This document shows positions 16,181 to 17,047 of a stretch of DNA of 64,000 nt, piece by piece. Made by a program: the position numbers and the translations under genes. The notes under the pieces were generated by a model. It ran no database searches and was not told the DNA's origin. It saw only the letters and a program-made list of their open reading frames with translations. Every line of letters begins with the position of its first letter. Position 1 is the first letter of the stretch. Where the stretch lies: contig OZ024741.1 in the NCBI GenBank assembly GCA_964016885.1, positions 173,414,001 through 173,478,000 of the forward strand. Reading direction: 5' to 3'. Origin of the DNA: Eledone cirrhosa (taxonomy: Eukaryota).

Positions 16181-16419
16181 ATATATATCATAATATAATA
16201 TCACATCATAGCCTATCTTTAATTATCTCAAAATCTTTTCTGAATGTTATTATTGTTAGTAAAGGCCAGTTGATCTTATGGGGTTGATAAAATAAAGCAC
16301 CAGTAATACACTGGGGTCAGTTTAATAACTTTCCCTTCCCCTTCAAATTGCTTACCTTGTACCTAAAGTAGAAACAATTATTATAAGTAACATTTCTGAC
16401 ACTTTTCTCTCTGTTACAG

Positions 16420-16614
16420 CCTCGAGATTCCAATTACTTGAATATGAAATTGCAAAATCTACTACGCAGATCAGAGGTATCAGACTCAGCTGTAAAAGGA
16501 CTGCGTGATCACAGAGCAAAAAGAGTTTTCTGCAATACTTTTGGAGGTTGTACAAGTCTCTTGCGTTCCGTTGCATTGAAAAACAGAAGAGCATCCGTAC
16601 TTTCGACCCATTGA
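16420..16614 (+). CDS. CCAP: Final coding exon of a CCAP-like (crustacean cardioactive peptide family) neuropeptide precursor
   Basis: Branch-like ttctgac, pyrimidine tract and ttacag acceptor at 16394-16419. Phase-0 frame reads PRDSNYLNMKLQNLLRRSEVSDSAVKGLRDHRAKR-VFCNTFGGCTSLLR-SVALKNRRASVLSTH*. A dibasic KR precedes xFCNxFGGC, matching arthropod PFCNAFTGC and molluscan/cephalopod VFCNSFGGC-type CCAPs. A donor AAG|gtaata (and an overlapping AATAAA) lies at ~16634-16646. Confidence 0.82.
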   Translation, partial: PRDSNYLNMKLQNLLRRSEVSDSAVKGLRDHRAKRVFCNTFGGCTSLLRSVALKNRRASVLSTH

Positions 16615-17047
16615 AATCTGTAACTTAAACACAAATAAAGGTAATATGAATTAAAGAATATATTTACCAAAACAAAATTAGAATTTGAATTTTTGCTCTA
16701 GCATAGCAGATACATAAATGTAAATATGGGTTATATTGAATAATAATGATAATATTCGATTTGTTTGCAAGCAAATGGCCTCATTATGCTATGCTTTGCT
16801 TCATCAGGACTCTATACCTTTCTGCTACTTGATTAAACTGTTTTCAGTCCTGATGAAGGGAAATGACCCAGAAACATGCTGGCTGTTCCTCGATGCTACT
16901 GTTGAACAAACAGATGACAATAGTCATCAAAAACAAAGCATAGCATAGTGAAGCCATCTGCTTGCAAACGAATCGAATATTATTATTGTTATTCATTAAT
17001 ATATTTACTCCATTTATGAAAGTCTATATGTATGTATGTATGAATTT

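Follow-up and report, generated by a model that had tools for sequence, protein, structure and literature searches.

Structure of the CCAP gene

The stretch of Eledone cirrhosa DNA analysed here, referred to as the window, is 64,000 nucleotides long and corresponds to G000:C2:173414001-173478000 in a 3.0-Gb assembly. A peptide-coding exon of 221 nt lies on its forward strand at 16420-16640 and comprises 64 codons, a TGA stop at 16612-16614 and 26 nt of 3' untranslated sequence. The acceptor, a pyrimidine tract with an AG ending at 16419, places the upstream junction at 16419/16420, and a donor (AG/GTAAT) 26 nt after the stop places the downstream junction at 16640/16641. Within the frame, a Lys-Arg at 16519-16524, predicted to be a convertase site, precedes a CCAP-type peptide, VFCNTFGGCTSLL (16525-16563), which is 13 residues long if the precursor is cut at the single Arg that follows; the same peptide is present in an O. 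vulgaris CCAP entry. The single Arg (16564-16566), a six-residue tail and an Arg-Arg (16585-16590) together occupy 16564-16590 and are identical in O. vulgaris. Were cleavage to occur at the Arg-Arg alone, the peptide would have 20 residues (16525-16584). It contains two Cys, predicted to form a ring, has Thr at position 5 and lacks an amidating Gly. The initial annotation of this DNA had listed the acceptor, the 64-codon frame, the KR, R and RR sites, the stop and the donor, and had read the exon as a CCAP-family exon with one peptide, Thr5 and no amidating Gly; each of these elements is present, and the reading is supported.

The FCN-x-F-GGC motif of this peptide occurs nowhere else across the six frames of the window. 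No further copy of a CCAP peptide was found by the six-frame motif scan of the window or in intron 2, where a search for relic copies gave one FCS match that lacks the motif. From base composition, the strict motif is expected by chance 7.6e-6 times per window and 0.36 times per genome, so the motif by itself is no proof of a gene; that proof is supplied by splicing and orthology. The exon protein was matched by the Pfam model PF11105 at residues 21-46 with 16.7 bits (E 0.0075), under the cut-off of 27.

The gene has at least three exons. A genome search with P0002, an O. vulgaris protein described below, placed an upstream coding exon (ATG and 37 codons) about 2.4 kb before the first base of the window, on the forward strand at G000:C2:173411540-173411650 (L003:1480-1590), where 22 of 35 aligned residues are identical to P0002. 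This exon ends in a phase-0 donor and encodes a predicted signal peptide, a call that rests on the hydropathy of the N-terminus (peak 2.74 at residues 12-20). Its 37 codons and the 64 of exon 2 give a precursor of 101 aa. Intron 1 is 18,769 nt long with GT-AG ends, and its window part is 1-16419; intron 2, at 16641-19615, has 2,975 nt and is likewise GT-AG.

Spliced contigs from sequence runs

The search of sequence runs returned 17 runs from 5 studies, none of them on record as RNA and with no record of library or tissue. Runs were ranked by shared exact 31-mers, and five of the 17 (X1, X2, X4, X8 and X15, from 4 studies) were examined. One contig lay on the exon in each of the five; those of X1, X2, X8 and X15 span 16418-16640 and that of X4 spans 16420-16618. 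The X15 contig, of 422 nt, shows no differences over 16418-16640 and comes from the organism whose large runs contain the whole stretch, X15 belonging to the same study as those runs. The contigs of X1, X2, X4 and X8 represent four other organisms covering the same exon.

The 5' junction was recovered in three of four runs, the loose 5' ends of the X15, X2 and X4 contigs matching the end of the upstream exon; the X8 contig starts at the junction. The 3' junction was also recovered in three of four: the loose 3' end of X15 matches 19616 onward exactly and those of X2 and X8 do so with small differences, while that of X4 does not. The contigs thus lack two GT-AG introns, removed exactly where predicted, and represent spliced transcripts, joining the exon to both neighbours at 16419/16420 and 16640/16641, the junctions that had been proposed for checking. 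A DNA search of the genome found no intron-less copy of the exon. The X4 contig carries three extra bases at 16513-16516, just before the KR, with the frame kept, and diverges right after the stop; its organism is likely a more distant octopod.

Downstream, the loose end of X15 defines a 3'-UTR exon at 19616-19699, of at least 84 nt as judged by the length of that end, with a long pyrimidine tract and AG upstream and a candidate poly(A) signal, ATTAAA, at 19693-19698. The peptide exon had been suggested to be the last exon of the canonical CCAP gene. The gene is indeed the canonical one, but the exon is the last coding exon, with the 3'-UTR exon beginning at 19616. Except at its first base and at a gap of two bases, the segment 19616-19645 is well conserved in X2 and X8. 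One of its frames resembles an amphipathic helix and might, speculatively, be the relic of a formerly coding exon.

Some features were also seen upstream of the ATG. The octamer TGACGTCA at L003:577, which we take to be of CRE type, is located together with a GC box (541) and a possible donor (695) in a region 780-940 bases ahead of the ATG; at L003:1452/1453, 27 bases ahead of it, there is an acceptor rich in pyrimidines. Judged by loose-end length, contigs of other organisms continue upstream of the ATG for some 70 bases or more, which suggests a non-coding first exon.

Intron contents and neighbouring repeats

The exon had been described as lying in a transposon desert. This is a fair description of the surroundings, yet positions 1-16419 of the window are intron 1 of the CCAP gene. 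The window part of this intron contains reverse-transcriptase fragments, simple repeats and a minisatellite at 12357-13970 (26 copies of 62 bp, 97% matches). Reverse-transcriptase fragments (PF00078) were located at 2335-3336, 21683-21985 and 34890-36299, the last also matching a PHD finger. In intron 2, a 174-codon open frame on the forward strand (17000-17524) has C2H2 zinc-finger matches; from its leading motif we take it to be, in all likelihood, the 3' end of a LINE-type element. Just upstream of the exon 2 acceptor, a short repeat that is very abundant forms two inverted pairs in nested arrangement (15990-16023 with 16348-16381, and 16027-16067 with 16275-16315), and the stretch 15990-16381 is heavily covered by repeat contigs.

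Copy number

Searches of the genome with the exon 2 protein and with the exon 2 DNA each gave one match, and exon 1 gave one real match together with one at E 5.7. A genome scan with the strict motif found one match and none in the control. Three looser motif scans gave 3, 2 and 4 matches compared with 2, 1 and 1 in their controls; two of these nine matches are the CCAP locus itself. The seven other motif loci (L008-L011 and L013-L015) were rejected as chance matches, having a stop in the motif, an open frame of 16-45 codons, or a lack of both dibasic site and acceptor. Locus L011 has a longer frame, of 77 codons, but neither a dibasic site nor an acceptor, and in none of the seven were a dibasic site, an in-phase acceptor and an intact frame found together. 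Two weak matches to P0002, L004 and L005 (E 3-4), were set aside as CCAP loci since the motif is absent from both. The genome search with Pfam PF11105 matched nowhere, the CCAP locus included, and is therefore uninformative on copy number. The count of CCAP loci therefore stands at one, as found by scans that would pass over a peptide split by an intron or lying in an assembly gap, and the 3.0-Gb genome has one copy of each coding exon.

Conservation of the peptide block

When the contigs of the four other organisms (X1, X2, X4 and X8) were compared with the Eledone exon, the listed differences amount to 18 variable sites, which fall between 16448 and 16610 but never within 16517-16592. This block of 76 bases spans KR to RR, including the tail, and carries no listed difference in any of the four; the 87 flanking bases carry all 18 sites, nine of them amino-acid-changing (Fisher p 5e-6). 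The differences listed are 8-15 of the 14-24 in each contig, the remainder likely lying near contig ends; the block was chosen after the data were seen, X1 and X2 show the same list, X1 is covered by part of its table, and ranking on shared 31-mers favours organisms in which the block is unbroken. With these provisos, it is clear from the comparison that the peptide is constrained at the protein level. In 16517-16592 some 16 synonymous sites are likewise unchanged among the listed differences (nominal p 5e-4), and possible constraint on synonymous positions is a lead only.

Searches for an RNA-level counterpart of the block gave negative results. The predicted fold has a z of +1.37, with 188 of 200 shuffled sequences folding as well; no complementary arm above the shuffle maximum was found in four flanking regions; and none of the 25 longest inverted repeats (of 391) touches the exon. 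Majority RNA editing is not seen in the X15 contig, which shows 0 differences, though contigs drop rare variants.

Identity and orthology

Among 36 candidates of 113-2000 aa, the only protein match was P0002, the O. vulgaris protein CAI9735784.1, with 36 of 42 residues identical. A protein search at 35-112 aa found nothing and Atlas gave no usable match. CAI9735784.1 (UniRef A0AA36FG06, 'hypothetical protein') shares the first exon and, for 42 residues, the beginning of exon 2, matching the window at 16420-16546, but it departs from the exon within the peptide, short of the second Cys, and its C-terminal part is a transposase-like HTH (PF25787). The model is likely mis-spliced, and this ending obscures that it is a CCAP. 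The protein collection searched yielded no correct CCAP protein from octopus.

A correct octopus sequence is present elsewhere. In the ccap-ligands file of de Oliveira 2019, eLife (PMC6660194), the sole octopus entry is octopusVulgaris.38, and by eye it is identical over residues 34-62 of P0001, that is, over the 29 residues from KR onward. It resembles the Eledone precursor in its signal peptide, spacer, KR, one peptide and tail (56 of 62 residues identical over the exon 2 part, again by eye), and differs by six changes in the spacer and at 13 of 35 aligned positions of the first exon. The main text of PMC6660194 has no occurrence of the word octopus, and no match to the octopus peptide was obtained in supplement file 3 of PMC6425005 as available. 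Octopus peptide strings were not found in paper texts, yet the sequence is present in the PMC6660194 supplement, so the blank text search did not mean that it was unpublished. No text discussing a single-peptide octopus CCAP was found in the literature searched, which lay outside subscription journals.

The locus shows what is expected of a cephalopod CCAP gene: a signal-peptide exon on the same transcript, a dibasic site followed by x-FCN-x-F/Y-GGC, and orthology extending beyond the motif. The orthology is based on pairwise comparisons, with 36/42 and 22/35 identity across spacer and signal peptide, and on the presence of a sole locus. The several peptides of other molluscan CCAP precursors are not seen here, where one peptide is followed by a stop. 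Since the O. vulgaris entry likewise has one peptide, the multi-peptide form appears typical of molluscs and not required of a cephalopod CCAP. We are highly confident that the exon encodes the peptide part of a spliced gene, that this gene is the sole CCAP precursor gene found and probably the ordinary ortholog in octopods, and that its 101-residue precursor is predicted to be secreted and cut to one cyclic, non-amidated peptide. The initial annotation had remarked that its novelty would fall if this were the single CCAP ortholog, and so it has proved: there is one locus, and its peptide stands in the published O. vulgaris entry. The octopod CCAP peptide is already in a published data file, and the Eledone gene is a new species member. 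What the locus provides is a correct octopod CCAP gene model, the one database protein found being broken inside the peptide.

Processing of the precursor and alternative readings

The signal peptide would send the precursor into the secretory pathway, a convertase would cut after Lys-Arg, and the two Cys would close as a disulfide, with no amidation of the C-terminus. By analogy with other cephalopods, the peptide may be released from central neurons, act on a CCAP-type GPCR, and modulate circulation, reproductive-tract muscle and brain circuits. [quoted passage not shown] Judging from copy number, this ccap would be the octopod gene described here.

Two C-termini are chiefly to be considered. 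The masses calculated with one disulfide are 1358.60 Da for 13 residues and 2127.06 Da for 20, and the literature searched gave no peptidomic record of either form from octopus. Cleavage at the single Arg, giving 13 residues, is the outcome we somewhat favour, and there is a small chance that both forms, or some other, are made. That the same gene yields mainly the C-terminally extended 20-residue peptide, which would refine the explanation given above and not replace it, seems to us a credible but less probable outcome. The presence of a basic residue 4, 6 or 8 positions upstream favours convertase cleavage; the single Arg has no basic residue at these positions, and the Arg-Arg has a Lys at P4. 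In the Idiosepius peptides, as far as the supplement excerpts show, three residues follow the second Cys and then KR, and the same position reads LR in the Eledone exon; with the closing Lys-Arg of the squid replaced by Leu-Arg, cleavage would move to the Arg-Arg seven residues on. There is a precedent in the insect RFLamide, extended after loss of a cleavage Arg, but the same source reports cleavage at monobasic Arg sites for several neuropeptide precursors (PMC7179676). The block without listed differences runs from KR to RR and so includes the tail, but this is weak at the protein level, where 8 of 29 flanking codons vary and a run of 6-8 unchanged codons is not significant; the ranking of runs by 31-mers, moreover, favours an unbroken block. 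If the 20-residue form is the true one, octopod CCAP would differ from the short peptides found in squid and other molluscs, a minor matter in the evolution of neuropeptides. The two forms define a pair of masses to search for and a pair of peptides to try on the receptor, and no long-standing question is opened. A further elaboration, which we regard as rather unlikely, is that octopods cut a multi-peptide CCAP to one, lost the closing Lys-Arg and now produce a non-amidated CCAP of 20 residues whose tail is basic, the 76 coding bases being frozen by RNA-level constraint such as splicing control or low-level A-to-I recoding.

Two other readings would deny the exon its place as the ordinary CCAP ortholog. 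The initial annotation had raised a divergent or venom-related paralog, and a gene taken over for glandular or venom use, as the conoCAPs of cone snails were, would agree with the short, single-peptide precursor and with the recruitment of CCAP that occurred in Conus (PMC13311285); the examined runs carry no tissue record, which leaves room for a gland origin. However, no further locus that could be the endogenous copy came out of the protein, DNA and motif scans, and the published ligand file already gives the O. vulgaris ortholog as its octopus CCAP. Across the four other organisms the peptide region has no listed change, a pattern contrary to the rapid evolution of toxins. A screen of toxin candidates from cephalopod salivary glands with neuropeptide models that included a crustacean CCAP model found five mimic types, CCAP not among them, the available part of its model list holding no molluscan CCAP model (bioRxiv 10.64898/2026.02.02.703354). 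Recruitment of this kind is accordingly very improbable. We consider it less probable still, to the point of near dismissal, that the exon is a pseudo-exon or truncated relic of a gene that formerly encoded several peptides, or that the motif arose by chance in non-coding DNA. The chance expectation of the motif per genome, the position of the stop upstream of a further intron and the want of a correct model in the protein collection would fit such a reading, but the contigs are spliced with an intact frame, amino-acid changes are confined to the flanks, and the sole insertion (the three bases in X4) preserves the frame. A stop close to the last junction normally escapes nonsense-mediated decay, and here the stop lies 26 nt from the junction, within that distance. 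The ordinary octopod CCAP ortholog remains the best account of the locus.

Comparison with known CCAP precursors

Among cephalopods, the Idiosepius paradoxus EST DB919014 shares with the Eledone exon the KR-VFCN-x-F/Y-GGC core, five residues between the Cys, the absence of an amidating Gly and a similar spacer (PMC6660194 supplement); this, like the other squid and cuttlefish precursor comparisons, was made by eye from supplement excerpts. The Idiosepius precursor differs in having at least two peptides, each closed by KR, and Ser where the Eledone exon has Thr, whereas Eledone has one peptide, closed by LR. Most gastropod and bivalve CCAP precursors hold two or three peptides (PMC5996578, PMC6425005). 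C-terminal amidation is given as a CCAP feature in PMC5996578 and PMC7179676. The earlier statement that molluscan CCAPs often lack amidation holds for the cephalopod entries compared, but in many peptides of gastropods and bivalves the basic site is preceded by a Gly (PMC6425005).

The conoCAPs of Conus villepinii venom are, like the octopod peptide, molluscan CCAP-family ring peptides, but they derive from a precursor with three peptides and are a venom product, and nothing at the Eledone locus points to venom. Arthropod CCAP (PFCNAFTGC-amide; PF11105) resembles the octopod peptide in its single-peptide precursor, the KR in front and the FCN-x-F-x-GC ring. The octopod peptide differs from it in being non-amidated and extended past the second Cys, with a Pfam score under the cut-off.
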